The notes under the pieces: model-generated
The model's database searches: none
Told to the model about the DNA's origin: nothing
Seen by the model: the letters and a program-made list of their open reading frames with translations, nothing else
Assembly (NCBI GenBank): GCA_963422645.2
Contig: CAXXVO010000002.1
Coordinates: 32,001-96,000 of the forward strand
Direction: 5' to 3'
DNA length: 64,000 nucleotides
Source: Alphaproteobacteria bacterium
GTDB lineage: Bacteria; Pseudomonadota; Alphaproteobacteria; UBA828
Position numbers and translations under genes: made by a program
Shown here: positions 9,237-35,008 of the stretch, in pieces
Numbering within the stretch: the first letter of the stretch is position 1
Layout of the letters: every line of letters begins with the position of its first letter

Positions 9237-11750
9237 TTAGAGGTCCGGGAGGTAGTAGGCGACGAGCAATCTCGTGAGGATTTCGCCACGGAGCGCCAAA
9301 CGATCAACATCCTCTTTTGGCATGGCTGCGAAGTCGGTTGGGTAGTGCCGGACCTCGTCGCGTGTTGGGAGGTCCGCTGGAATCCAGGGCAAGGCATTGT
9401 CCTTCTGTCCGAGATAGGCCAACGCGAAGCCCGAGAGTTTTCCGTCGTCAGCAAAGTAGTGCAGGCGTTTTCGAGTAGCGTCCTGGACCTTGCGAAAGAC
9501 TGTGAGAAAGGACCGGTACATCCTAGTAGGCCAGCGGGTCGGGTAGCTGTCGGCGTCGAATAGGCCCGCGCCAGCGTCGCAACAAATGATGTACTCGGGG
9601 TCGAAAACATTCGTGCTGATAGAAGCTATCCGCCCAGGCTCCATCGGGTTAACGCCCAGATTCTCGAATACTCCACCATCGGTGAGCAGAACACGAGTCG
9701 GCGTACTGGTTTTCCCGTTCTTGACAAAGCGGTACTTGCGTTCAAGTGCAGGCAGAAAGACCGGATAGGCTGCCGAAGCGGCCACGGCATCGGCGACCAG
9801 AGCGTCTTCGGGGGCAATCGTTCCAAAACGCCAACAGCCGCTATGCCGACTTCCGAACCGGAATGCGGATCCGGTTCGCAGCTCGGTGGCATTGATAACC
9901 GTATCGAGCGATTCCCGGGAGACTTCGCGCACAATGGTATCGCCGAACATGGATTGAGCGATGACTTCCTTGAACGCCTCCGTGCGGCTGAACGTGCGCT
10001 CCACCGGCTGACTCACGCGATCAGGGTTGTTCGATGGGATCGCGACGCGAGCCAGGCGATGAAGTATGCGGGCGATGAAGCACAGACACGCGACAAAATG
10101 AACTCTGACAACCTTGCGGATGGAGCCCTGTAGAAACACCTGGCGAAAGATGTCGCGGTGAAGTCCTTTGTCCAGAAGCTGTAGTGCGCGCGCTTCAAAC
10201 TCCGGGAACGGATCGTCTGAATAGGCATACATTGCGGAGATCACAGAACCGCCAGACACACTCGAAATCACCTGGAGGCGATCAAGCAAATCCAGGTCGT
10301 GCAGAGCACGCAGACATCCCAGGTGAAACGCGATGGCGCGCGATCCCCCGCCGGAGAGCGCGAGCCCCACATTTCTCGGCTTCTGGAGGCGTGGCCCAAG
10401 CTGCGTCGTTGCTGCTGTGTTTCGTTCAATTCGAATGAAATTCTTGTCGGACAGTGTTGTCCTGAATGCATGCGCGCCAAGAATTGGATCGTCGGGATTC
10501 CCGGAGAGGATCAGGATCAAGCAGGTTCTTCGGGCGGAGACCGGGTCGGCTAGGAGCTGTGCGACGGCATCAATGTCGATATCGCTTGGGTGCGGCGAGG
10601 ACGAGGGGTGGGTATGCCAACTGCCGACGCAATCGACCGATCCGCGGAACCGGTCGCGCTTACTTTCGGCAGCCTCTATCATCCCTTTGACTCCGCAGGT
10701 GAAGTGCTCCTCGCTTGCGTCGCTGTCTGGCGGCGGTCCCTCCACCTCCGTGACCCAAAGCACGCCCGCGGCTTCGTTCAACTCACCAAATACCAGCCCG
10801 CCGGTCTCAATTCCTGGTCCCACCGTTCGCGCAGATCGTCTTGCCCATCCGCGCATTTCTCGCGCAGCAGTCGCAGATACCCGGACCGAATAGCCGCGCC
10901 CCTCGTCCCTGAGAGTATGTTCCGGGGGCCACGAAAACTCATGGACAGGTCCGGATTCTTCGCAAGTCCAGCCAAAGCCCGTGTGGCAGTCATCGGTCCC
11001 TTGGATCGCACGAGCGATAGAATTCAGCATGCGCGCTGACAGTCCTGCGAGATCGGCGTTGGAACCGATGAACGTCGGCTCCGAACAGCCAGGTTCTGGT
11101 TGAAATTCCTCGCCTGGCGCCGATCGCGGCCAGAAAGCCTGAAGCGGTCTCGCGAGCTGCGCACTTCGACACGCTTCGAGTTTGAGGCACCGAGTCAGGT
11201 CGAGCGTGCCGCCGCTATGGTTCCCTCGCGAAAGAGTAGCAATGCCGTTGGCGGCCTGACTGTCGATGGCGATGGATGCAATTGGAGGTCGCGTGTCCGG
11301 GGCGTCGCGTAGCACATGCTCCAGGGCCGTCCGAACCGCCATTGAGGCCGTGCAATCGAGCAGAAGGTCGACCATCGGAAGTGGATCGGCGCCTGTTACT
11401 CGTTGAATAAGGTCGCCGGTCGAAGCGACAGCTTCCAGATCGGGATCGATCCTTTTCAAGCGATCGGCCAGCGCGTGAGCCTTGAACCTTCCGATATCGG
11501 CGTCTTCAAAGCCTTGTCGTACTAGGAGACCGGGGGCGACCGTCTTGTTGTCTACAAGCTCTACCGTTCTGGCACCGGCCCGTACGACGCTTTCCGCCAC
11601 GTGGGTCCCTACAGCGCCGCATCCCCAAATCGCCACACGCTTACCGGAAAACCAAGCCATGGGGGATGCTTGATCCCGCCTCCTGGTGACCTCAGGACGC
11701 ATTTCCCTGACTCTGCACCAACCCACATCGGCCAAGACCGACCATTCCAC
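9237..11750 (-). CDS. ThiF/E1 + JAB/MPN peptidase + patatin phospholipase fusion (probably the 3' part of an E2-E1-JAB-patatin gene frameshifted at about 11770)
   Basis: E1: VAIWGCGAVG, VD..TV...LVRQ, DCTAS, PEPGCSEPTF. JAB: ETGG...GSWHTHP......SDID. Patatin: LALSGGGSRA, SSVSGGS, DGGV. Confidence 0.88.
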   Translation of the reverse strand: MEWSVLADVGWCRVREMRPEVTRRRDQASPMAWFSGKRVAIWGCGAVGTHVAESVVRAGARTVELVDNKTVAPGLLVRQGFEDADIGRFKAHALADRLKRIDPDLEAVASTGDLIQRVTGADPLPMVDLLLDCTASMAVRTALEHVLRDAPDTRPPIASIAIDSQAANGIATLSRGNHSGGTLDLTRCLKLEACRSAQLARPLQAFWPRSAPGEEFQPEPGCSEPTFIGSNADLAGLSARMLNSIARAIQGTDDCHTGFGWTCEESGPVHEFSWPPEHTLRDEGRGYSVRVSATAAREMRGWARRSARTVGPGIETGGLVFGELNEAAGVLWVTEVEGPPPDSDASEEHFTCGVKGMIEAAESKRDRFRGSVDCVGSWHTHPSSSPHPSDIDIDAVAQLLADPVSARRTCLILILSGNPDDPILGAHAFRTTLSDKNFIRIERNTAATTQLGPRLQKPRNVGLALSGGGSRAIAFHLGCLRALHDLDLLDRLQVISSVSGGSVISAMYAYSDDPFPEFEARALQLLDKGLHRDIFRQVFLQGSIRKVVRVHFVACLCFIARILHRLARVAIPSNNPDRVSQPVERTFSRTEAFKEVIAQSMFGDTIVREVSRESLDTVINATELRTGSAFRFGSRHSGCWRFGTIAPEDALVADAVAASAAYPVFLPALERKYRFVKNGKTSTPTRVLLTDGGVFENLGVNPMEPGRIASISTNVFDPEYIICCDAGAGLFDADSYPTRWPTRMYRSFLTVFRKVQDATRKRLHYFADDGKLSGFALAYLGQKDNALPWIPADLPTRDEVRHYPTDFAAMPKEDVDRLALRGEILTRLLVAYYLPDL

Positions 11751-11758
11751 GACCGCAA

Positions 11759-12655
11759 CTATCGCTGCACAGCCCGTTGTGCTGGATCATCGGCTGACGA
11801 CGAGACATTCAGCTCTCGCAGCTTGTCTGCGTCGGCAGTAGCGATTTCCCATACTGCGAGATGCTGAAGGGCTCGACCGCCCGGGTCTATTCGGCGCATC
11901 GGGGTACCGAGCACTACGGCCAGCGGGGTCACGGCGCCGCTGTTTCGCGCGTACAGCCCGAGTTGGCGGATGAACGGACCGTAGTCGAGACCGTGAGATT
12001 CCAGCTCTTTCAATAGGGAGTGGACAGTCTTTGGGTATTCGAAAGGCAGGTTCCTATGGAGCAAGATTGCGGGAGCGAAGTGGGCCGGCAGTTCATGACC
12101 ATGCTCCTGCCAGCCGACGATTTCGGTGCGATGGTGTCGTTCACGTAGTTCCGCCAACCCGAACCAAGGCGAGTCGTCAACCGGAGGAGTATCCGCCCTC
12201 GGCACAAATAAGCGGTCAACGATTGGATAGGCGACCGGCGGATGGAGTGGCGCGTCGTCGGGATCGAGGTTGTTGACTGCTGCGTCACGTATCCAGGAGT
12301 CTAACCGCTTGACAAAGCCGTACATCCCGTTTTCCGGGCGCCAGTCGGCGGAACTCCCGTAGAGGCAGAGTTGCCTCCGCCACTGGACGTGATTGAAGCC
12401 GGAGAAGCGAACATGCGGAGTCACGACCAGTGGATGCTCGAACGGGAAGGTAGGAGGTACGAGCACGCAGAAAGCCTCACGTGCTCGCACCGGTAGCCCA
12501 TCCTCGCCCCGCTCCAGGCCGTCGAATCGAATGCTTATCTCGAACAGGCGATAGGCGTCGACAAGCTGAGTGGCTTCGTAGAGCTGTACGGTGCCGTCCG
12601 AGGCATCCGCAATCTCCCTAAGCTGTTCCCAGGCGAGTTCGAAGGCATCGGCCAT
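11759..12655 (-). CDS. Prokaryotic E2 (UBC-like) domain protein, 5' part of the frameshifted fusion
   Basis: VPPTFPFEHP...HVQW.RQLCLY...DWRP...FVKRL..W (E2 with Cys in LCLY). TGATG coupling to the upstream MBL. Confidence 0.8.
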   Translation of the reverse strand: MADAFELAWEQLREIADASDGTVQLYEATQLVDAYRLFEISIRFDGLERGEDGLPVRAREAFCVLVPPTFPFEHPLVVTPHVRFSGFNHVQWRRQLCLYGSSADWRPENGMYGFVKRLDSWIRDAAVNNLDPDDAPLHPPVAYPIVDRLFVPRADTPPVDDSPWFGLAELRERHHRTEIVGWQEHGHELPAHFAPAILLHRNLPFEYPKTVHSLLKELESHGLDYGPFIRQLGLYARNSGAVTPLAVVLGTPMRRIDPGGRALQHLAVWEIATADADKLRELNVSSSADDPAQRAVQR

Positions 12656-13779
12656 CAGGCCCGGCCGTACGTGTGAGCACTTTCGGGAGCTTCGTTTGAG
12701 CCCTTCGCTGCATCGGCGGCTTCCGAAGCGGTCATGGCGGCGGTCGCCACGCCGGCGAGCACGATCTTTCCATCCTTAAGTTCAGCCATGATCGGCTCGT
12801 CCTGATCCATTGTGCAAAGAAAGGACTCGGTGGTCGACTCGTACTGCGTCTTGGCCTTTGCATGGGGAGGGTTGTCACCGGCCTTGTTGGAGGACGGTAC
12901 CGTATTGGAGCTGGATATGACCCGATTGGGTTTCAAAGACGCCTTCTCCATTTCCTCAACGATGTGCTTCTTGAGCTTCTCCTCGTCGTCCCCTTCCTCC
13001 TTCCAGTACATCGCGGCCTTTGAGCAGTGGTGCGGTGCCAGCAGCACGTTCCATGCGAGATCGTCGTCTTCGTTGACGCCAAATATTCTCTTGATGATCG
13101 GGTAGGAAAGATCACCGAGGAGCAGCGCGCGCAGTATCTTGTCTCCGTCGTAAAGCGTGACCTGCATGCCGAGGCTCGTGTCGTTCCGCTCGCCGGCGTC
13201 ATCGTCCTTGAACGGGGCATGGACAAATGCCCGGAACTTGTCAGACACGTCCTTTTCGTCAATCGTGGTCACTTCGTTACCCGGTATCGTCAACCGATCT
13301 TCCGGAAAATCCTTGTAATCGTCCTCTTCCAGCAACTCCGAGTAGCCGAAAATACGCACGCGGTCGCCGGCGCCTGGATCGCCCTTGGCCTCGATCGTCT
13401 TCTTGACGCGCCGTTCCGCCTCCTTCTTGAAATCCTTCGCGTCGTCGCAGAGATCCTTATTATACTCGGCAAAGATTCTGGGCGTGAACCACAACTCGCC
13501 AATATCTACCTTGTCGAGGAGGTCCGAGAAACCCCGGCAATGGTCCTGATCAGGGTGAGTCAGAGCAAACACGGCCAGGTACGGTCGTCCATTGACCTTG
13601 GGCAACCGTTCTGAGAGCTCATCGACAACGGCCCAGCTGGCATCGTCGTCGTCGTCGGACTTTTGCAGATGATTGAGATCAACCTGCAGATACGTCTTCG
13701 AGTCGACAACAATGGATGTGCTGTCGCCATTTGCCACCGGCCAGAAGACCAGTCCGCGGTCAGGAAGTTCGAAGGCCAT
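12655..13779 (-). CDS. Metallo-beta-lactamase-fold hydrolase with a low-complexity C-terminal tail
   Basis: FWPVANGDST, LTHPDQDH, LLGD, APHHCS, ISSS. Ala-rich tail ending SAHTYGRA. Confidence 0.85.
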   Translation of the reverse strand: MAFELPDRGLVFWPVANGDSTSIVVDSKTYLQVDLNHLQKSDDDDDASWAVVDELSERLPKVNGRPYLAVFALTHPDQDHCRGFSDLLDKVDIGELWFTPRIFAEYNKDLCDDAKDFKKEAERRVKKTIEAKGDPGAGDRVRIFGYSELLEEDDYKDFPEDRLTIPGNEVTTIDEKDVSDKFRAFVHAPFKDDDAGERNDTSLGMQVTLYDGDKILRALLLGDLSYPIIKRIFGVNEDDDLAWNVLLAPHHCSKAAMYWKEEGDDEEKLKKHIVEEMEKASLKPNRVISSSNTVPSSNKAGDNPPHAKAKTQYESTTESFLCTMDQDEPIMAELKDGKIVLAGVATAAMTASEAADAAKGSNEAPESAHTYGRA

Positions 13780-13874: not shown

Positions 13875-15755
13875 TCATCGTACACACCGTGTGACAAACC
13901 CATTGCCGCCGCGTGCTGTAAGCAACGACACGCCATCTTCGATGTTTGTTTGAAAGACTTGTCGAGCTACTTTGCCGTACAGCTTGACTGCCTTTGCGTC
14001 TGGATGCCCGTATTGATTGTCGACCCCGGCGCTGATCAAGACCGTGTCCGGGGACACAAGTAGCGCCATTTTGGGATGAGCCGCATTCTTTGAGCCGTGA
14101 TGCGGGGCACTCAAGACGTCGGAAGAAAGACTATTTCCGAACAATCTGGTTAACCGCTTATGCACATGGCTCCGGTTCGATCAACATGCTGTAGGTAAGG
14201 GGTTTTGCATTGGTGGCGATGCGGAAGAGCGAGCGGAAAGCAGCGTGGCGGGTTTTGCGGCGGTTGAAGCGAAAGGCGAACTCATCGAGATAGGCCTGCA
14301 GATGCTTGCGGCGCAGCCCGTGGTAGACGCCTCGCGCCCATCCTTTGAGGTTGGAGAAGACTTGGTGGATCCACGGCAGGACGAGGTGAGCGGCGGTCTT
14401 CCCGACGACATGGACATTGTGGCGATCGGCGGGGACCGCAGCGTAGCCGGACCAGCCGTCGGTTTTCGCGATGGCGTCGGGATCGGCGGCGGTTTCGACG
14501 AAGTGTCCGAGGTCGGCGGCGCCGTAGGAGGAGATTTCGGCCAGCCGCAGGCGGCCCGGGATGGTTCCATCCCCCAGTTCGATGGCGCCGACGATGAGCA
14601 TCTTGCCGTCGTGGCTGCGTCCTTGCCCTCCGGTGGGAGGATCGTCTTTGGTCCGGAATGGAAGGCTGGCCTCGTCGATTTCCACCAGGCCCGACAACGG
14701 GTTGCGCTCGGGGTCGACCATGCTGGCGCGCAGCTTGTGGGCGAGCAGCCAAGCGCTGCGGTAAGAGCCGATACCGAGCTGTTTCTGGAGCTGCAGGGCA
14801 GAGATGCCGTTGGAGTGGGTCGCCATCAGGTAGGCGGCCCAGAACCAGACGGTGAGCGGCAGCTTGCTGGCGTGCAGGATCGTCCCGGCCGTCACCGAGG
14901 TCTGCCGGCGGCAGCCGGCGCACTCGAAGGTGTGTGCTTTTCTGCGCAGCGCCCATCCCTTTTCATGGCCGCACGCGGGACAGACGAAGCCGTCCGGCCA
15001 GCGCATTTCGATCAGCCAGGCGGCGCAGGCGTCATCGTCCGGGAACATGTGCTGGAAGGCGAGGAGGCTGTCGGCGACCTGTTTCATGTGGTGGCTCCGT
15101 CGGCAGGAACGTATAGGCAACATTCTACCCGTTCTCCCGCCCTAACCTCAACCTCAACATCTGGTGGCAAACTCTCGCGACCGGAGCCATGTGCATAAGC
15201 GGTTCTGGTTATTGTGTCCCAGCGGTCGTTTTCCGTATCTCCCGTTATCAGATAAGGAAACCCATTCCCGCCAATTCCCGACAACTTGAGGACTATGCTA
15301 CAGTTGTTGGAATTATCCATGTCTTCACTATGCGGAGAAAACAGCTCATAGGAAAAATACTTGGAAAGCCCATTCAGTTTTCGCGAATGGAGGTCCAACC
15401 GTACCGAGAGCTTCTTTAGGGGCTTTCCTGTATTCCTTCGCCGGCGCTCATGCTTGTTGATAACCTTGAACACGTCGGTGGCATTATCGGTATCCTTGTA
15501 ATACTTCGGATACATGATCCAATTGGGTTTGTACTCTCCCAGAATGTTGTCAACCCCATACGGGTCAGCATGGTCGTTATCGAACCCTGTCAATACGAGG
15601 CCCGCTAAGTCCTGATTGCGGAGAAACACCTGCAATTGCTTCTCGATTGCTTTAGCGTGTTCGTCGGGCCAGCGCGAATCGACGATCACGGCTTCTCCGC
15701 GGTGGCGGATGGCGATCAACTCACCCTGTCCTACGTATACCGTCAGCGTCTGCAT
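13875..15755 (-). pseudogene. ComEC/Rec2-like MBL-fold protein split by an IS1595 insertion
   Basis: 5' part: MQTLTVYVGQGE, TGFDNDH, NSNNCSIVL, ITGDTE..RWDTITR. 3' part: LFGNSL..DVL.APHHGS, ISAG..NQYGHP. Removing the IS and one TSD copy rejoins the halves in frame. Confidence 0.88.
14153..15203 (-). mobile_element. IS1595-family element, complete; transposase at about 14158-15087
   Basis: Perfect 24-bp TIRs ACCGCTTATGCACATGGCTCCGGT and 8-bp TSD TCTGGTTA (14145-14152, 15204-15211). CPAC/CAGC, VEIDE, KTDGW, EFAFRFNRR. Confidence 0.95.
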
Positions 15756-15757
15756 TG

Positions 15758-16684
15758 CTATTGCCCACTCCGTTCGCTGATGGCCCAATACAGCGATTGG
15801 TTCAATTCTCTCTCGAACGCACTCACCGCCTGTGCCGCAGACCCGAACTGCCGTCCGCTGAAGTCCTCGTAGACCCCTGCGCACACGCTTGGCAGCTTCT
15901 TGGCCAGAACTTGGTAATAGGAAGCCTCTCCGTCCTCCGATGTGTCTATTTCGGGGACCGTGACATCTATCGATGACCCGTCAACCAGTTCCAGCTCTCC
16001 CTTCCAATACAGAGTGCCGGCGCGTTTCGACCAGTACGGCTGAAGCGACGGGAAGAGGTCTGGAATGGTCGCACTATCCCTGGTCCGGACTTCCTTGCTG
16101 TGCCCCGCCTCTGTCTTGCTCAGCTCCGGCCTCGATCCAAGGGGCCAAACGGGTGCGTCTCTCGTAAGGGTGACTTTCGCGGGTTCGACCTCGTAAACGG
16201 CATCGTCACCCCGTAACAGGATGTAGTGCCTGACGCTGTAGCGTGACGCCGCCTCTCCACCAGCCAGCCGGGAAACGACGAGTAGTGCATAAAAGAAATC
16301 AAGGTTGTGCTTTTCGTGATTCACTATCCTTCTGTAGGTTGCAATGTCGCCGCCGCTGAGGTTTGGAAATCCATTCACATGATGTGTGTGCCAATTGCCA
16401 AGATGCTCAACTTCAGGGCGCGCGCTCTCGATCTGGCGAAATATCTCCGCTTGGTAGTCGCCGTCCTGGAAGAAACTTGTGGTGGACCTCCGCGCATTCG
16501 GTCCAGCCTCGATGACACCGGTAACCGTGACCTCCAATGAGCCATCGGCGCAGCGCCGAAACCGTCCTACGATCCGCCCACCCGTCTCGTCATGGTCATA
16601 ACGATCGCAGTCATCGAAGATCGACTCCAGTACCAGCGAAGGGATCGATAGCGTAGCGTTGGCATCCTTTAGGTCGCTATTCAT
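15758..16684 (-). CDS. JAB/MPN+ metallopeptidase with an additional C-terminal domain
   Basis: DETGG, LGNWHTHH......SGGD (E, HxH, S, D). RBS GGAGG before the ATG at 16684. About 110 extra residues follow. Confidence 0.85.
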   Translation of the reverse strand: MNSDLKDANATLSIPSLVLESIFDDCDRYDHDETGGRIVGRFRRCADGSLEVTVTGVIEAGPNARRSTTSFFQDGDYQAEIFRQIESARPEVEHLGNWHTHHVNGFPNLSGGDIATYRRIVNHEKHNLDFFYALLVVSRLAGGEAASRYSVRHYILLRGDDAVYEVEPAKVTLTRDAPVWPLGSRPELSKTEAGHSKEVRTRDSATIPDLFPSLQPYWSKRAGTLYWKGELELVDGSSIDVTVPEIDTSEDGEASYYQVLAKKLPSVCAGVYEDFSGRQFGSAAQAVSAFERELNQSLYWAISERSGQ

Positions 16685-17519
16685 TGGAACCTCCACAAAC
16701 TAGGCAACCCTCCTGCCGATGCAGGGTGATTCTTTGCAGCTCGAAGCTCTTGCTGAATGGATGTATCGGTCGATTTCCCCAAACCACGTAATTTTCCGGG
16801 ATAGCGGGAAGAAACGCTGGCCGTTGTGGGGCCAGCCGAGCCAAAGCGTCCATCACATAGCGCACGTGAAAAAGCGTGATGAACCCGATGTCTACCGCGA
16901 GGCCTGGGGAATCCTTTATCTCTTGAGGATCCAATCCGTACATTTGCTCCCGGTCTTCTTCGGAAGCGAGATCAATCTCCCTGACACCGTCTCGGAATTT
17001 AGTTCGTTCGAGAACACCCTCCAGACAAGCAAGACACCCACTCTCGCCCGGACGATAACCAAACACCTCTCCGCCAATCCCGCGGGTGAACACTTTTCCG
17101 ACAACGAATGGTGTTTCATTTCGAACACACAATTCGTTCATTTGAAATCGTGTCGGATCATTGTCGGTGGCAAGTACGACGATGTGGGAGCGTTGGACCT
17201 CACTCTCCAAGCCATGCCACTGCATCAGATCTTCTTCGACTTTCAGTACAGAAATATCTGGGTTTCGATCCTTGAGTACGTCTTCCAGTGCATCAACCTT
17301 CTTGCGACCGACAAATCGAAGTCCGCAAACATGCCGAATCACATTTTCGGATTTCATCACGTCTTTATCGATCAACGTGAAGTGTTTGACGCCTGACATG
17401 ACAAGTTGGAGCGCAACCTGGCCCCCGCCAGACCCGCAACCTGCGATGAGTACACGGGATTCGGCGAAGGCCTCGACGTCAAACAGACCTTCAATTCTCG
17501 CAAATAGGTTTTCGTGCAA
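16677..17519 (-). CDS. ThiF/MoeB-family E1 adenylyltransferase
   Basis: TTG start with GGAGG RBS. FARI, LIAGCGSGG, IDKD.....NVIRH, VGRKKV, ATDN, and Zn pairs CLAC and CLVC. Confidence 0.9.
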   Translation of the reverse strand: MHENLFARIEGLFDVEAFAESRVLIAGCGSGGGQVALQLVMSGVKHFTLIDKDVMKSENVIRHVCGLRFVGRKKVDALEDVLKDRNPDISVLKVEEDLMQWHGLESEVQRSHIVVLATDNDPTRFQMNELCVRNETPFVVGKVFTRGIGGEVFGYRPGESGCLACLEGVLERTKFRDGVREIDLASEEDREQMYGLDPQEIKDSPGLAVDIGFITLFHVRYVMDALARLAPQRPAFLPAIPENYVVWGNRPIHPFSKSFELQRITLHRQEGCLVCGGSNE

Positions 17520-17520
17520 T

Positions 17521-18048
17521 TCAGGTGCCCTCCCGCTCGGGCCAATTGCCGGTAGTGGACCACAATGCATAGCCGCTTAGCCATCGCCGACACAGTTTCA
17601 AGGTATGAACCACATCGTGTCGCCCGGGATTCCAGGTTTCCATGGCGCCAAAAATGCAAAGAGAGCCGTCAAGCCAGAGATGAGGAGATGATGGGTCTAT
17701 CGGATCGGCTGTAACCACCGGGGACTTGTTCGGATACCCGTGGGGTAGCGTGATGCATAAACGGATATCCTTCTCTTGGCCTGGTTCAGTAAGAATTAAT
17801 TGTATTTCCCTATTCTCCGTTATAGATACGCGAAATGGTTCACTTTCGGCAGCAAGACCATCAAGTTCCTGCGATATCCTGTTCGGGGAGATATCAGGCA
17901 GGAAGACGGAAATGGGCACCAGACATGCCTTTTGTTGTCCGCTTCTCTCTACAACATAGGCACGACCGCGTACCGCGACGTCATCCAGAATTTCTCCGGG
18001 TCGGCTGCGGAGATCCATCATGGATAGAGGTTGGAAGTCGATGTGCAT
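17521..18048 (-). CDS. Phd/YefM-like domain fused to an E2 (UBC-like) domain
   Basis: N-term SMMDLRSRPGEILDDV...GRAYVVERSGQQKACLVP (Phd/YefM pattern). C-term LPHGYPNKSP...SPHLW.DGSLCIF...WNP...RWL..Y.LW..TGNWP (E2). Confidence 0.75.
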   Translation of the reverse strand: MHIDFQPLSMMDLRSRPGEILDDVAVRGRAYVVERSGQQKACLVPISVFLPDISPNRISQELDGLAAESEPFRVSITENREIQLILTEPGQEKDIRLCITLPHGYPNKSPVVTADPIDPSSPHLWLDGSLCIFGAMETWNPGRHDVVHTLKLCRRWLSGYALWSTTGNWPEREGT

Positions 18049-18054
18049 GGCAGA

Positions 18055-18429
18055 TCAATGGGCAATGCCCGCACCGGGCCAACGACGCTGAACGCAATAG
18101 ACTTCGTATTTGGCTAGCCATTTGGCCGCTCGCGCAATGACGAAGCGGAGGTCATGACGTCCAGGGTTCCAAAAATTCGGATGCAAGTAGCAAAGTTGAT
18201 TATCGGTGTACCGATGAGGGGAGGGTTGCAGCGCAGGTGTCCGGACGAAAACCTGGGGCATCGCATTCGGGTACGACTGCGGGAACGTTACTGCCAGTGT
18301 GTAGTAGCGGAGCGACGTCTGTAGCGCGACCAAAGCCATCAATCCGCCTGCGTTGGTGGGGTGCGCCTCGACGTAGTCGAAGTGCTGCTGCGCGGTCGCA
18401 ATATCCCGTTGGATTCTTGTCAGATTCAC
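18055..18429 (-). CDS. Stand-alone prokaryotic E2 (UBC-like) protein, 124 aa
   Basis: GTG start overlapping the upstream TGA. FPQSYPNAMP.V...SPHRY.DNQLCY....WNP...KWL.KYEVY.....WPG. Confidence 0.8.
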   Translation of the reverse strand: MNLTRIQRDIATAQQHFDYVEAHPTNAGGLMALVALQTSLRYYTLAVTFPQSYPNAMPQVFVRTPALQPSPHRYTDNQLCYLHPNFWNPGRHDLRFVIARAAKWLAKYEVYCVQRRWPGAGIAH

Positions 18430-18620
18430 CGCGAGTCTCCACGGGCGCTGTATTCGCCTCCTAGGTCTTCCCTCATCGTGATCGGCTTGCGATAGCCGCT
18501 TTCCGCAGCAGCGCTTCCGCCGAGCTCCCGCACCTCGCCGTTGGGCAGGATTTCGATCGGGGAGTCCTCCTCCTCGTCCAAGATCGCCTCGAGTTCGTGG
18601 ATTGTCGGTTTTCTCGCCAT
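18426..18620 (-). CDS. 64-aa acidic peptide, candidate conjugated modifier (...REDLGGEYSARGDSR)
   Basis: First gene of the operon. AGGTGA RBS, GTGA coupling to the E2, GG motif near the C-terminus. Confidence 0.7.
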   Translation of the reverse strand: MARKPTIHELEAILDEEEDSPIEILPNGEVRELGGSAAAESGYRKPITMREDLGGEYSARGDSR

Positions 18621-18644
18621 TTCGCGTCACCTATGAGGATCGTG

Positions 18645-18682
18645 CGGTTATGATAGTTGTACAGTTCATAACCGGCTGTCAA
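18645..18682 (-). promoter_or_regulatory. Promoter (-35 TTGACA) with palindromic operator CGGTTATGA-N12-TCATAACCG and a TGTACA core
   Basis: TGTCAA at 18677-18682, 9-bp inverted arms at 18645-18653 and 18666-18674, TGTACA at 18658-18663. The -10 element is weak or ambiguous. Confidence 0.65.
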
Positions 18683-18889
18683 GGGAAGAAGCCGGCTCTA
18701 GCGGATGGTGTCCTGGGCATCGCGCTACGCGGCACCAAGCCGTGGACATGACGGCGAGCCATGGTCAGGCGTCGTCGAGGGCAAGGCGTTGGAGGAGGGA
18801 GGTGCAGCCCTCCCGCACGATGGCGGGGGCCCGCGCCCGTTTCTGAGGATGGAGGAAGAATCGAGGCGTCGCGGCGAGGCCGGCAAAGG

Positions 18890-19000
18890 TCTACAGGTAC
18901 TCAACCGGATGATCGCCGGACCGATACCGGGAGTAGCGAAACCATGCCTTCGGCAGGTGCGGAGCTTCGAACGGCCCGTCGCCGCGGACATAGACCCGGG
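18890..19000 (-). pseudogene. Degenerate IS66 tnpC fragment
   Basis: RVYVRGDGPFEAPHLPKAWFRYSRYRSGDHPVEYL aligns with WVYVRDDRPFGGPDPPAALFRYSRDRSGDHPVEHL of the tnpC at 4238-5734. Confidence 0.7.
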
Positions 19001-19130
19001 ACCGTACGGTGCTCCCGATCGGGCTGGACCGCTTCGGAATTCCGGATCGTGATTGCGAAGGCGACCGGCATGAAGTACCTCGGTGGCCCTTCGCCGGCCG
19101 GCGGGCCACGAGAGCTTGGTGTGCTCGTCC

Positions 19131-19209
19131 GCAATGTTCGCTGCGCAGCGAATATTGCCAGGTTCTCGAATATCCGCTAGAAGGCATATATTTGCTGCGC
19201 AGCAGAATA
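19131..19209 (+). promoter_or_regulatory. Two GCTGCGCAGC-centred palindromes flanking a TTGCCA-17-TAGAAG promoter (AbiEi operator candidate)
   Basis: GCAATGTTCGCTGCGCAGCGAATATTGC (19131-19158) and TATTTGCTGCGCAGCAGAATA (19189-19209). Confidence 0.65.
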
Positions 19210-19219
19210 GGCTTGAACG

Positions 19220-20317
19220 GTGATGCTTGACTCGGACGTAATGGAAGGACAGCTGGTTGACGGGTTCCTGGAAGCCCTGCGGGAGCTCCCCGATGCGCAG
19301 GCGGAGGTCAGTGAGGCCGAACAGCCGGGCGGCCGCGATCGAGGACATGACGTCCAGGTTGACCTCCGGGTGGGTGGGAAGGCGGCCACCCTGCTGATTG
19401 AGATGAAGAAGGACGTATATCCCCGTGACGTGCGGCAGGTACTTTGGCAGCTCCGCGGCTCCGCACGGAGAAGGCCGCACCCGGAAGAAAAACGGGAAGC
19501 GGTGTTCTTCCTGATCGCCCGATCGATTTCACCTGGAGCCAAGGAGCTGTTGAGGAACGAGCGGGTCGGCTACTACGACAGCGGCGGCAGCCTGTTTCTG
19601 CCCGCCGGCAACATCTACGTGTATGTGGACAAGCCGCCCCCGAAAAGCCTGTCGCGGTCCATCCGTTCCGTGTTTTCGGGCCGTCGTGCGCAAGTGCTGC
19701 ACGCGGTCCTGCTGCGACATCGCGAGTGGTTCGGGGTGAATGACATCGCCAACCAAGCCCGGGTATCGCCCGCGACCGCCTCGCAGGTTCTGATGGAAAT
19801 GGAGAAGTTCGAATGGGTGGTGTCGCGTGGACAGGGGCCAGGAAAAGAACGCCATCTGCAAGAGCCAGGCGCCTTGCTGGATGCATGGGTGAACCAGCAG
19901 GCGGTGATGCGGCCGCTGTCCATGCGGCGTTACTTCGTGCCGTCGGCGGGCGCGGAAGGGCTGGTGGAGAAGTTCGCCGAGGTCTGCGCAGAGAGCAAGG
20001 CCGAATACGCGATCACTCACGAGGCGGCAGGGCAACGGTACGCGCCATTTCTGTCAACTGTCTCCCAGGTGCGTTGCCGGCTGCTGGAGGGCCCGGCAGC
20101 AGATCGGGGTCTTAGCGCAATTGATGCTCGATTCGTGGACCAAGGCGCGAACCTTGCGGTCATCGAGGTCAAGTCGCCGAGCGAGTTGCTGTTTCGCGAA
20201 TTCGTGAACGGGATCTGGCTGGCAAGTGCTGTGCAGGTCTACCTCGACCTGATGCGCAGCGAGGGCCGCGCTAGGGAAATGGCGGAGCACCTGCGCCACG
20301 AAAGGATCGGCTTCTGA
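19220..20317 (+). CDS. Type IV TA antitoxin, AbiEi-like, with central wHTH
   Basis: YYDSGGSLFL, HTH GVNDIANQARVSPATASQVL, LLDAW, GANL, QVYLDL...GRARE.AEHL. Coupled to a nucleotidyltransferase. Confidence 0.8.
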   Translation: MMLDSDVMEGQLVDGFLEALRELPDAQAEVSEAEQPGGRDRGHDVQVDLRVGGKAATLLIEMKKDVYPRDVRQVLWQLRGSARRRPHPEEKREAVFFLIARSISPGAKELLRNERVGYYDSGGSLFLPAGNIYVYVDKPPPKSLSRSIRSVFSGRRAQVLHAVLLRHREWFGVNDIANQARVSPATASQVLMEMEKFEWVVSRGQGPGKERHLQEPGALLDAWVNQQAVMRPLSMRRYFVPSAGAEGLVEKFAEVCAESKAEYAITHEAAGQRYAPFLSTVSQVRCRLLEGPAADRGLSAIDARFVDQGANLAVIEVKSPSELLFREFVNGIWLASAVQVYLDLMRSEGRAREMAEHLRHERIGF

Positions 20318-21231
20318 TGGTGAAGCCCGCGACGTTCGACGGCTACAGCGATCGGTACACGGTCGAATGCGAGCGGGTCCTCGTAACTCTGCTGCGCGGA
20401 CTGGGCCCGTGGAAGGAGTCCGTGTTTCTGGTGGGCGGACTGACTCCCAGATACTTGGTGGCGGCTCGGCCGCCGGAAGTGCCGGCGCATGCCGGCACGC
20501 TCGACGTGGACATCGTCATCGATCTGCAGATCCTGGCTGACACTGCGGGCTATCGCACGCTTGAGGAGAACCTGCGAGCGATGAGGTTCGAGCGGTCGAT
20601 GAACGAGAGAGGCCAGAGGCTTTCATGGCGGTGGCAGACTCGCACCGAAAGCGGTGCGCTGATGGTGGTCGAGCTGCTCGCCGACGCGCCGGACATCGCT
20701 GGTGGCAGGGTCGAACCGCTGCCTACGGAAGGGAACATTTCCGCGCTCAACATCCCGCATTCGTCCATTGTCTTCGAAATGCACCAGGTCGCGGAGATTC
20801 GGGCAGAGCTCCTGGGCGGTGGGGGAAACGCCGTCGAAGTGGTGAGGCACGCCGATTTGGTGAGCTTCACTTGCTTGAAGGCTTTCGCCTTCGACCAGCG
20901 CTTCGAGCGGAAGGACGCCCATGACCTGATGTATTGCATTGAACACGCGGAGCGAGGTCTCGACGGAGCCGCGTACATGTTCCGCGAGGCCTTGGGGGGC
21001 AAGCACGGCGCAGTGATTTGGGACTGTTTGTCAATTCTTCGCAATCGTTTCGCAGGGGACGGCGAAGTCGAGGGGTATCGGAAAGACGGTCCGGTAGCGG
21101 TGGCCCGCTTCGAACTGGGTGAGGGTGACGATGCTGGTCAGCGCGAAGCTCGGTTGCTGAGGCAGCGGGAGGTCAACAGCGTGATGGAGCAACTTCTGGG
21201 TCGGATCGCTTCGGAGGCGGCATGGCGGTAA
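20317..21231 (+). CDS. AbiEii-like nucleotidyltransferase toxin
   Basis: FLVGGL.P, HAGTLDVD, LKAFAF..R...KDAHD. Confidence 0.78.
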   Translation: MVKPATFDGYSDRYTVECERVLVTLLRGLGPWKESVFLVGGLTPRYLVAARPPEVPAHAGTLDVDIVIDLQILADTAGYRTLEENLRAMRFERSMNERGQRLSWRWQTRTESGALMVVELLADAPDIAGGRVEPLPTEGNISALNIPHSSIVFEMHQVAEIRAELLGGGGNAVEVVRHADLVSFTCLKAFAFDQRFERKDAHDLMYCIEHAERGLDGAAYMFREALGGKHGAVIWDCLSILRNRFAGDGEVEGYRKDGPVAVARFELGEGDDAGQREARLLRQREVNSVMEQLLGRIASEAAWR

Positions 21232-34074: not shown

Positions 34075-35008
34075 TCAGACTTCCTGACCTCGTGATGCTG
34101 GCTGTTCTGGGCAGCGTGCCGGGAACTCCTTGAATTCTGATACATTTCGGTTGTTTCAGGCGGTTTTTCGCTGGGTGTCGCGCCCGAGGTCTGATATTAT
34201 AATTTGATACCAATTGCACGGGGTCTCAACCATGCCCAGTACCCTCCCAATGTGCCCTCCAGAGGCGGTCTCGATCGGCAACAGCTGCTTCGCCGTCCTG
34301 ATCTCGGACGACACCTTCACCTACTTTTCCAACCTCATTCCCTTTGACAGCCACGCCGCCGATGACCGCACGGCCATGCTCTTGCGGATCGGCCGCCTCG
34401 CGGCGATCAGCGCGGTCTCGCCGCAGGAACTGGCTGACGCTTTCGCTGTCTCGCGCGCGACGGTGCAGCGCGCACGACGGCGCTACCTGGCCGAGGGCGA
34501 AGCGGGGTTCATGAAGCCCCGGCGCGGTCGCGGGCCGTCGGTGTTCACTCCGGAGTTGGCGGAGAAGGCGACGGCGTTGCTGGCATCGGGCCTGAGCGGC
34601 TCTGCGGCGGCCCGGGTTCTCGGCGTGTCAGCGCCATCGGTCAACAAGTGGCGCCGTCAGGGACTGATCGGCAACACGGAGGCGGATGGGGAGCCCGGAC
34701 GCTCAGCGCTGGCTGCGCCGCCTGACGCGGGTGCGGCTCCTGAAGGCCGTGTCGATGAAGAGAGTACCGGTGCCCCGGGGCCGGAGACGGCGCCGGGGCT
34801 GGAAGCGCAGCCGCAAACGGATCGCAGCGCGCGCGATCGGCGGGACCGGCAGGCGCCGATGGGGCGTGCGACTTGCGATGTTCCGGCTCGGGTTCTGGCC
34901 AGTTGTGGACAGGCGGGGCCGGTCGAACCGCAGTTCGCCGCCGCCGCCCGCGGTGTCCGCTTCGGCGGCGTGCTCGCCGCCCTGCCGGCCCTGCTGAAGG
35001 AAGGTCTC
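34075..35008 (+). mobile_element. Left end and 5' half of an unclassified transposase with two HTH motifs (ORF starts 34232)
   Basis: ELADAFAVSRATVQR...Y..EGEAGF and SAAARVLGVSAPSVNKW, then GGVLAALPALL, truncated. Confidence 0.6.

Follow-up and report, generated by a model that had tools for sequence, protein, structure and literature searches.

A six-gene operon with a Phd/YefM-E2 fusion

The window analysed here is a stretch of 64,000 nucleotides from an alphaproteobacterial genome of the UBA828 lineage (assembly GCA_963422645.2, contig CAXXVO010000002.1, positions 32,001 to 96,000 of the forward strand), and all coordinates below refer to it. On its minus strand lies an operon of six genes that encode, in this order, a small peptide carrying the motif LGGEY, a stand-alone ubiquitin-conjugating (E2) protein that we call E2a, a protein in which an antitoxin-type domain of the Phd/YefM kind is joined to a second E2 domain (Phd-E2), a ThiF-type activating enzyme (E1), a JAB/MPN peptidase and a protein of the metallo-beta-lactamase (MBL) fold (Table 1). 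Positions 17521-18682 hold the promoter of this operon and its first three genes, and this report is concerned with Phd-E2 and with the part that it may play in the control of its own operon. The GTG start codon of E2a shares 4 nt with the stop codon of the peptide gene, and E2a matched the PADLOC E2 model PDLC00862 with an E value of 4.7e-11. The JAB/MPN peptidase has a C-terminal extension of about 170 amino acids without a recognised family.

Table 1. Features of the operon and of its promoter in the window
Feature	Position	Strand	Remarks
-35-like TTGACA	18677..18682	-	read in the sequence; enriched across homologous promoters
Perfect inverted repeat CGGTTATGA-N12-TCATAACCG	18645..18674		9-bp arms, 100% complementary
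Box 1, TGTACAAC (YGYRCRAY)	18656..18663	-	contains TGTACA; begins 19 nt after the start of TTGAC
Box 2, CGCACGAT (YGYRCRAY)	18639..18646	-	shortly before the AGGTGA ribosome-binding site and 17 bp downstream of box 1
LGGEY peptide gene	18426..18620	-	64 amino acids, ending in ...REDLGGEY and a tail of 8 residues; from the list of open reading frames; presumed modifier
E2a	18055..18429	-	stand-alone E2 of 124 amino acids with Cys (NQLCYL); start placed from homologues
Phd-E2 fusion gene	17521..18048	-	open reading frame, 175 amino acids
Phd/YefM-type N-terminal domain of Phd-E2	17899..18048	-	residues 1-50, order b1-a1-a2-b2-b3
E2/UBC-fold domain of Phd-E2	17521..17885	-	residues 55-175 and stop codon; Cys131 in GSLCIF
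ThiF-type E1	16677..17570	-	PF00899, E 1.3e-30; the first ATG may not be the true start, which could be farther downstream
JAB/MPN peptidase	15758..16696	-	PADLOC JAB, E 1.5e-14; Prok-JAB, E 1.3e-4
MBL-fold gene, N-terminal part	15204..15755	-	59% identity to residues 1-185 of the MBL of homologous locus L005, E 4e-80
IS1595-family transposase gene within the MBL gene	14158..15123	-	PF12762, E 5.7e-26; PF12760, E 1e-12
MBL-fold gene, C-terminal part	13875..14165	-	67% identity to residues 182-274 of the L005 MBL, E 3e-44

The fusion of a Phd/YefM domain to an E2 domain is real and widespread and it is more than a chance event because it is conserved in hundreds of homologues. In a collection of 5.8 billion proteins, 667 relatives of Phd-E2 were found at an E value of 0.001 or better, and among the 120 homologues listed nearly all were 165-200 amino acids long with a query coverage of 91-100%; a scan of representatives at 50% identity gave 119 clusters, nine of them at 1e-30 or better. 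Automatic annotation already puts both Pfam families on these proteins. There were also representatives of 100-140 amino acids that held the N-terminal domain only or the E2 domain only, many of them 60-70% identical to the fusion's own domains, and these are probably fragments from short contigs. Relatives of Phd-E2 were encoded in 17 genome loci and in 351 metagenome stretches, 80 of which were kept. E2a lay directly upstream of Phd-E2 in 78 of 87 loci, the peptide gene was present upstream of E2a in 73 of the 76 loci with more than 650 nt of upstream sequence, and an open reading frame with a ThiF-type glycine motif followed Phd-E2 in all 67 loci with more than 950 nt downstream. The initial annotation had stated that no example of such a protein was known to it, and this is in keeping with the full-text literature on YefM in combination with ubiquitin-like, JAB, ThiF or ubiquitin-conjugating terms, where no Phd/YefM-E2 fusion was described; supplementary tables of the Bil and Bub papers lay outside that search.

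The metagenome-assembled genomes (MAGs) from which the loci come carry labels that include Binatia, Paracoccaceae, Gemmatimonadetes, Gammaproteobacteria, Holophagales and Terriglobia, and the upstream neighbours of the operon vary between loci. In the source genome of the window there is one copy of the fusion. Two of the loci, L001 in a MAG labelled Binatia and L002 in one labelled Paracoccaceae, encode a Phd-E2 that is 96% identical to that of the window, which points to, and is consistent with, spread of the operon by recent horizontal transfer. The promoters of L001 and L002 have diverged from that of the window more than the proteins have. The family, in which an antitoxin-type DNA-binding domain is wired onto an E2-like domain, numbers hundreds of members, from bacteria of soil and sediment and from those associated with sponges.

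The N-terminal domain of Phd-E2

By Pfam, by predicted fold and by predicted dimer, residues 1-50 of Phd-E2 are assigned to the Phd/YefM N-terminal domain, which is the fold that the initial annotation had proposed for them. In the window protein, PF02604 (PhdYeFM_antitox) matched residues 9-47 with scores below the Pfam cutoff of 29.8 bits, namely 16.8 bits (E 0.0059) for the whole protein and 20 bits (E 6e-4) for residues 1-54 alone. In the N-domains scanned from diverse loci, 32 out of 32 matched PF02604 at an E value of 0.01 or better, the best being 2.4e-10, and a precomputed match to this family was found on 41 among the 120 homologues listed. When the whole protein was used as the query in phmmer it reached stand-alone proteins of about 105 amino acids, P0220 and P0235, which pass the PF02604 cutoff with 40.8 and 41.9 bits. 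The AlphaFold model of the whole Phd-E2 had a predicted local distance difference test (pLDDT) score of 88.9 and the AF2 model of residues 1-54 had a score of 93.3, with the elements in the order b1(5-9)-a1-a2-b2-b3(38-43). When this N-domain was searched with Foldseek the best solved matches were Phd, YefM and their relatives, including Phd on its operator (4zm0, 4zm2) and YoeB-YefM on DNA (6l8e, 7v6w), with template modelling (TM) scores of up to 0.8 and E values that were only 0.0095-0.1 because the domain is short. Against the Phd N-domain 4zlx the TM scores were 0.71/0.80 with a root-mean-square deviation (rmsd) of 1.4 over 44 columns. In VIA-align the top 23 rows were all antitoxins of the Phd/YefM family, with Z of 4.8-6.9, and the next row, of CBS domains, had a Z of 3.5; the alignment with 4zlx had a Z of 6.9 with 47 residues aligned and an rmsd of 2.2. 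The predicted b1-a1-a2-b2-b3 fold therefore superposes on solved Phd and YefM.

The predicted homodimer of Phd-E2 scored 0.47, whereas the best of three controls scored 0.00; of 30 proteins whose solved structures are pairs of one chain, 20 reach this mark, as does 1 of 23 whose structures are single chains. Between the runs at least 98% of the contacts agreed, and the pLDDT of the partners was at least 85. The interface in the model is formed by residues 1-49, symmetric at 43-43, and by residues 62-66 and 73-80 in the E2 region, and it is the symmetric b3-b3 contact typical of the Phd/YefM family. The prediction shows likeness and is no proof of binding; Phd and YefM dimers have already been solved, and the pass may echo them. 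The N-domain is also the most conserved part of the protein, with a mean column identity of 76% compared to 57% for the whole protein. Within strand b3, Cys42 (KACLVP) was kept in all 78 distinct full-length homologues, and the predicted dimer brings its two copies into contact (42-42, expected error 1.6 A). Cys42 is thus invariant in these proteins, whereas the active-site Cys of the E2 domain is missing from more than a third of them. A redox or acyl-transfer role for Cys42 is conceivable.

A classical antitoxin carries a toxin-binding tail at its C-terminal side. In Phd-E2 this region is replaced by a folded E2 domain, and in all loci examined the flanking genes are E2a and E1. Phd-E2 is therefore not a classical antitoxin, although it bears the DNA-binding domain of that family. 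It shares its N-terminal fold and its predicted dimerisation through b3 with YefM-YoeB of E. coli and Phd-Doc of phage P1, but a toxin gene and a disordered toxin-binding tail are absent, and the genes that would be regulated encode a conjugation cascade and not a toxin.

The fused E2 domain and the stand-alone E2a

Residues 55-175 of Phd-E2 are predicted to have the ubiquitin-conjugating (UBC/E2) fold. Foldseek matched the model of this domain to UFC1, CDC34, UBE2G1, UBE2N and CdnG-E2 (8hsb) at E values of 1.2e-4 to 1.3e-3, the PADLOC E2 match had an E value of 7.6e-9, and PF26395, named 'E2-CBASS' in the Atlas output, was found precomputed on most homologues. In the alignment with UBE2A/Rad6, Cys131 in GSLCIF falls on the Cys of the DGSIC motif. 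The initial description of an antitoxin-type domain fused to an E2 that keeps its Cys was correct. Classical E2s have an HPN motif, which is absent from the fused E2; in the UBE2A alignment SPH is found there, with His at the position of Asn. Bacterial E2-like proteins without the classical histidine are noted in row 6d of Iyer et al. 2006 (PMC1779556), and SPH in place of HPN alone does not show inactivity.

When the active site of the fused E2 was examined in the 85 full-length homologues from the loci, the Cys was present in 53 of them and no Cys was found in the other 32, in which the position was taken by Ser (19), Ala (6) or Gly, Gln, Glu and Pro (one each), three being unmatched by the pattern. 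In the first alignment, of 35 closer homologues, Cys was present in at least 90%. The loss is concentrated in one clade of 29 loci, where two retain the Cys and the preceding His varies as well; the copy in the window and two of the three large clades keep both the Cys and the preceding His. The Cys-less clades retain the Phd domain, the operon and the promoter boxes described below. In E2a the Cys was present in 97% of 78 homologues, and it was kept in all 29 checkable loci in which the fused E2 is Cys-less. Since E2a keeps its Cys both overall and in these loci, it appears to be the constant catalytic E2 of the system. Because no fused Cys was found in 32 of 85 homologues while E2a keeps its own, the family-wide role of the fused E2 domain cannot require a thioester.

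E2 folds without a catalytic Cys are familiar from the ubiquitin E2 variant (UEV) proteins Mms2 and Vps23/Tsg101, which act by binding. The clade of 29 loci is like them in that the fused E2 is Cys-less in 27 while the partner E2a retains its Cys, and the UEV domain of Vps23 (1uzx, 3r3q) was among the fold matches of the fused E2; the window's own fused E2 differs from UEV proteins in keeping Cys and His. By this comparison the fused domain can serve as a UEV-like module that lacks the Cys, and its conserved role is most simply binding. In Cys-bearing lineages such as that of the window, charging may add a layer of control. These natural Cys-plus and Cys-minus fused E2s are a ready-made experiment on catalysis in regulation.

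The promoter and its conserved boxes

The initial annotation drew attention to a palindrome, CGGTTATGA-N12-TCATAACCG, with TGTACA inside and next to a TTGACA, and proposed it as a matching operator over the promoter. All of these elements are present as described: TGTACA lies at 18658-18663 within the inverted repeat, 1 bp off its centre, and the TTGACA on the minus strand is 2 nt from the repeat. The palindrome is, however, not conserved upstream of homologous operons. Among the other 72 non-redundant promoters of homologues there was none with either 9-bp arm or with any 8-mer of the arms, so that homologues lack the palindrome, a result that the initial annotation had named as grounds for refuting its reading, and the arms are absent even from L001 and L002. 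When the promoters of the window, L001 and L002 were aligned only TTGACA, ACTnTnCAA and scattered bases were invariant. Perfect inverted repeats of 9 nt with loops of up to 20 numbered 17 in the window, which is 65% GC, compared to 9.6 +/- 3.7 in block shuffles, and the background is therefore one such repeat per about 4 kb. By this comparison the palindrome with 9-bp arms is a local, lineage-specific feature and not the conserved element. It was also considered as an RNA hairpin and rejected, because its left arm begins 2 nt past the -35 and so falls within the spacer of the promoter.

The conserved element was found when the 120 nt upstream of the peptide start were compared in 79 loci, 73 of them non-redundant. 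When 6-mers were counted in these 73 upstream regions without a prior motif, the enriched words fell into three groups only, where shuffles give about 2 per word. The most enriched were the -35 words CTTGAC and TTGACA (27 of 73), the ribosome-binding site was represented by AGGAGG (20 of 73), and the third group consisted of the TGTACA-like words TGCAAT (25), GCACGA (22), GTGCAA (22), CGCACG (19) and TGTGCA (17). This third group collapses to the 8-mer YGYRCRAY, of which the hexamer core YGYRCR is self-complementary like TGTACA. In the forward orientation YGYRCRAY occurred 72 times in the 73 promoters compared to 3.5 +/- 1.9 times in shuffles, and at least two boxes were found in 18 promoters where the shuffle maximum was one. 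An exact box was present at -67 to -1 in 51 of 73 promoters and at -150 to -84, which served as the real-DNA control, in 1 of 73. With respect to the start of TTGAC, 41 of 43 boxes lay at +7 to +61 nt, a stretch that takes in the spacer and the -10 as well as the start site and leader. By these counts the TGTACA-type box recurs across the homologues far more often than expected by chance.

The boxes come in two flavours, one of the TGTGCAAT type, which forms direct or inverted pairs 15-18 bp apart, and one of the CGCACGAT type, which in a large clade of promoters is repeated in tandem every 8 bp. One box of each flavour, 17 bp apart, is found both in the window and in L002. Box 1 of the window had been noticed from the start as a TGTACA site, but the second box, CGCACGAT, 17 bp downstream, was overlooked. 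When the window is aligned with L001 and L002, the core of box 1 is seen to be conserved among the three. The only other pair of boxes in the window was found at 34454-34478, where the sequence is GC-rich. Of the 73 promoters, 9 contain a perfect inverted repeat whose arms are at least 9 nt long, the shuffle mean being 0.4, and in four loci (L062, L065, L066 and L090) it is the box itself that makes up the arms. Of the operator first proposed, then, the part that stands is that a conserved TGTACA-type box overlaps the promoter.

These boxes resemble the operator of YefM. According to Kedzierska et al. 2007 (PMC1802561), E. coli YefM protects a long palindrome, TCATTGTACAATGA (the L repeat), and a short repeat, both with a TGTACA core, which agrees with the precedent of a TGTACA-cored YefM operator that had been cited for this locus. 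In that paper the centres of the two repeats are 12 bp apart and protection extends over the -10, and paired TGTACA boxes at most 80 bp from the start codon recur in yefM-yoeB homologues. The operon described here is like YefM-YoeB in having paired TGTACA-type boxes near the start codon over the promoter, and the L repeat contains TGTACAAT, from which box 1 of the window differs by one base. A YefM-like paired-box operator is well supported by comparison.

Phd-E2 as a candidate autorepressor

On the basis of the folds, the fusion, the conserved operon and the boxes, with their conservation and their placement, we propose that Phd-E2 is a dimeric transcriptional autorepressor of its six-gene conjugation operon, a reading to which we give a probability of about 0.6; DNA binding, repression and the input signal are the parts that we infer. 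The Phd/YefM N-domain would dimerise via strand b3, and the dimer would bind the YGYRCRAY boxes between the -35 and the ribosome-binding site, which here are TGTACAAC and CGCACGAT, 17 bp apart, and would thereby occlude RNA polymerase. The E2-fold domain would occupy the place of the toxin-binding tail of a classical antitoxin, and most likely it would tune repression by non-covalent means, as a sensor or as a module that binds a partner (E2a, E1 or the peptide), and not as an obligatory thioester carrier. The boxes are assigned to the Phd/YefM domain mainly because the box is essentially half of the YefM L repeat, and also because the operon is without another DNA-binding domain and its upstream neighbours vary; in scans with Pfam, PADLOC and NCBIfam no other recognisable DNA-binding domain was encoded in the conserved operon.

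Several points weigh against this proposal. The window's own N-domain stays under the Pfam cutoff, and when its profile was run against PDB sequences nothing significant was found, the best Phd-like row being 2odk with an E value of 1.5. The box pattern was written after the same 73 promoters had been viewed, and the 6-mer count and the real-DNA control lessen this bias but do not remove it. No exact box was present at -120 to -1 in 21 of the 73 promoters, and these include the close relative L001, in which the first box has one mismatch and the second has decayed. The spacing of the boxes, 17-18 or 8 bp, differs from the 12 bp given for E. coli YefM in the paper cited above. Promoter geometry is also unsettled, because a simple sigma-70 scan gave no canonical -10 at 16-18 nt from TTGACA in the window; a sigma-70 scan of 18400-19300 returned 0 promoters, and by eye TATCAT at 21 nt and TACAAC at 15 nt after TTGACA are neither convincing as a -10. 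Finally, N-termini of the MT type go with CGA boxes (19 of 20) and those of the MM type with CAA boxes or none, but this pairing was rejected as independent evidence of co-evolution between protein and box because it rests on a single MT/MM change on the tree, which leaves one independent pair and p = 1.

The initial annotation went further and supposed that the repressor of the operon is itself an E2, so that transcription could depend on its charging state. The part of this in which the repressor carries an E2 domain agrees with our proposal, but the part that concerns charging has been weakened. If thioester charging with the peptide, or self-conjugation, switched DNA binding, then transcription would report the state of the cascade, and it speaks for such a switch that the same operon encodes an E1, a JAB and a GG-bearing peptide, that in alignment the Cys falls on the catalytic Cys of UBE2A, and that it is kept together with the preceding His in the window and in two of the three large clades (53 of 85 homologues have the Cys). 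Nevertheless, the other 32 show no Cys, in one clade 2 of 29 retain it and the His varies there too, E2a keeps its Cys in 29 out of 29 checkable Cys-less loci, and neither the Phd domain nor the operon nor the boxes are lost from the Cys-less clades, so that a thioester is not needed for the conserved role. We therefore regard charging as the general switch as doubtful; in the window itself such a switch is possible but unlikely, and it would not be the family's general mechanism. A broader form of the idea, in which the repressor is a component of its own cascade and its hold on the boxes is altered either by loading of the LGGEY peptide onto the fused E2 in Cys-bearing lineages or by capture by E2a, E1 or the peptide in all of them, is tentative and on balance rather unlikely. 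If it were true, transcription of an immune operon would be feedback-controlled by the flux through its conjugation pathway, which would be conditional cooperativity of the toxin-antitoxin kind with a pathway enzyme in the toxin's place.

It could also be that the Phd/YefM domain is a mere dimerisation scaffold for two E2-like domains and that the boxes are promoter elements or sites of a host factor. The canonical b3-b3 interface of the predicted dimer would fit this, as would the contacts made by the E2 region and the promoters without an exact box. But the boxes are similar to an operator known from the same protein family and are placed where a repressor would act, a host-encoded factor is unlikely because the operon spans diverse MAG labels with varying neighbours, and conservation within the protein is highest in the N-domain, so that a scaffold is in our view not a likely explanation. 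That the palindrome is the operator in this lineage, or an added site for another regulator, is improbable. It is perfect, it begins 2 nt from the -35 and spans the spacer, few such repeats are expected per promoter-sized stretch, and palindromes are enriched in homologous promoters; yet its arms are found in 0 of 72 other promoters and are missing from the 96%-identical relatives, its background in the window is not low, its centre is 1 bp away from TGTACA, and in the other loci the arms are built from the box itself and not from unrelated sequence. The least probable reading by far is that Phd-E2 is a classical type II antitoxin that neutralises a toxin, as its relatives are named by automatic annotation, the ESM Atlas clusters of these proteins being called Phd/YefM or prevent-host-death antitoxin. 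A folded E2 domain stands where the toxin-binding tail would be, and the operon has no YoeB- or Doc-type gene, its neighbours being always E2a and E1. The operon, which is defence-like, offers a testable set of promoter, operator and repressor, consisting of two 8-bp boxes, a domain of 54 residues and the natural fused E2s with and without the Cys.

Relation to known systems

The bacterial ubiquitin-like systems, among them Cap2/3 from CBASS (anti-phage signalling systems based on cyclic oligonucleotides), Bil, Bub and 6A-MBL, are a fast-moving field. To our knowledge, silencing of such systems is known only for separate regulators, for example CapH/CapP and CapW. In passages of the Bil and Bub preprints (PMC10557695, PMC11601596), CapH/CapP and CapW/BrxR are the sole regulators mentioned, and they are described there as dedicated repressors that hold immune operons off until a signal arrives. 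Those regulators are separate helix-turn-helix (HTH) or WYL proteins encoded upstream, whereas here an antitoxin-type DNA-binding domain is fused to a component of the pathway.

Among the closest known systems is 6A-MBL (NF058523, NF058524), which likewise has E2, E1 and JAB activities beside an MBL-fold protein. It corresponds to row 6a of Iyer et al. 2006 (PMC1779556), and it has been reported to be anti-phage in a 2026 review (PMC13276650) that cites van den Berg et al. 2024. Unlike 6A-MBL, where these activities are in a single Cap2_3 protein, the operon has E2, E1 and JAB as separate genes and a duplicated E2, one copy of which bears the Phd domain, and it is led by the conserved gene for the LGGEY peptide. 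With the 6A-MBL models the E1 scored 57.1 bits and the JAB 45.6 bits, where the cutoff is 320, and the MBL of the operon scored 17.1 where the cutoff is 220. On these scores and features the operon is a split, distant relative of 6A-MBL and not a member.

There is also a likeness to CBASS, in that the fused E2 domain falls in PF26395 'E2-CBASS' and matches the PADLOC CBASS E2 models and the 8hsb_B chain, and that the JAB of the operon matches Cap3-type models. The operon differs from type II CBASS in that no CD-NTase (cGAS/DncV-like nucleotidyltransferase) was found among its six genes in Pfam, PADLOC and NCBIfam scans, and in that the presumed substrate is a dedicated small peptide. Matches to the PADLOC 'Cyclase' model PDLC00816 covered only its last 85-90 positions (453-542 of 542) and in both proteins fell on the E2 fold. 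No CBASS E2 with a Phd/YefM domain was described in the full-text literature searched.

The LGGEY peptide and other features of the locus

The peptide encoded by the first gene is 57-66 amino acids long across the loci and strongly conserved, with the consensus ...PIEILPNGE[IV]R...KP[LI]TMRE[DN]LGGEY. LGGEY was found in all 77 distinct peptides, 22 of which finish exactly at GGEY, while the others have variable tails of 2-11 residues that overlap the start of E2a. For the peptide of 64 amino acids in the window no match was found in Pfam, PADLOC or NCBIfam. It may be a very small modifier that is handled by E1 and E2 and whose end is trimmed by the JAB, and it may be among the smallest modifiers of this kind; the peptide is undescribed.

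Short contigs from RNA-seq libraries of sponge metagenomes, 95-99% alike to the window, were found over 18218-18552, 18374-18581 and 16806-16956, and thus cover part of the E1 gene and the junction of peptide gene and E2a. They came from four metatranscriptome runs, in which the pieces of X1 and X2 and those of X3 and X4 were identical, so that they look like two data sets each filed twice. The contigs are a hint, and not proof, that a close relative of the operon is transcribed in situ; as proof of transcription or of a start site they were rejected as too weak, since they show neither strand nor start and DNA carry-over is possible.

In the source genome the six-gene system is probably inactive because the MBL gene of the operon is split by an element of the IS1595 family. 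Upstream, in the divergent orientation, a pair of genes at 19220-21231 on the plus strand encodes a protein of 365 amino acids with a weak HTH match and a very weak match to AbiEi_2 (E 0.082), and one of 304 amino acids with no clear family; this might be an AbiE-like pair. The gene immediately downstream of the operon, at 12655-13779, was recognised by NCBIfam as '6A-MBL system MBL-fold protein' with 290 bits, the cutoff being 220, and NCBIfam matches to '6A-MBL cap2_3' below the cutoff were obtained for the neighbouring E2 (11759-12655) and for the E1 and the JAB of the operon. There is thus a second system of E2, E1, JAB and MBL directly downstream (9237-13779, minus strand), in which the Prok-E2_A protein is a separate gene and a protein of 837 amino acids joins ThiF, JAB and a patatin-like phospholipase domain. 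The two related systems stand in tandem within an island rich in insertion sequences (IS), with transposases of the IS66 type and of DDE_Tnp_1.

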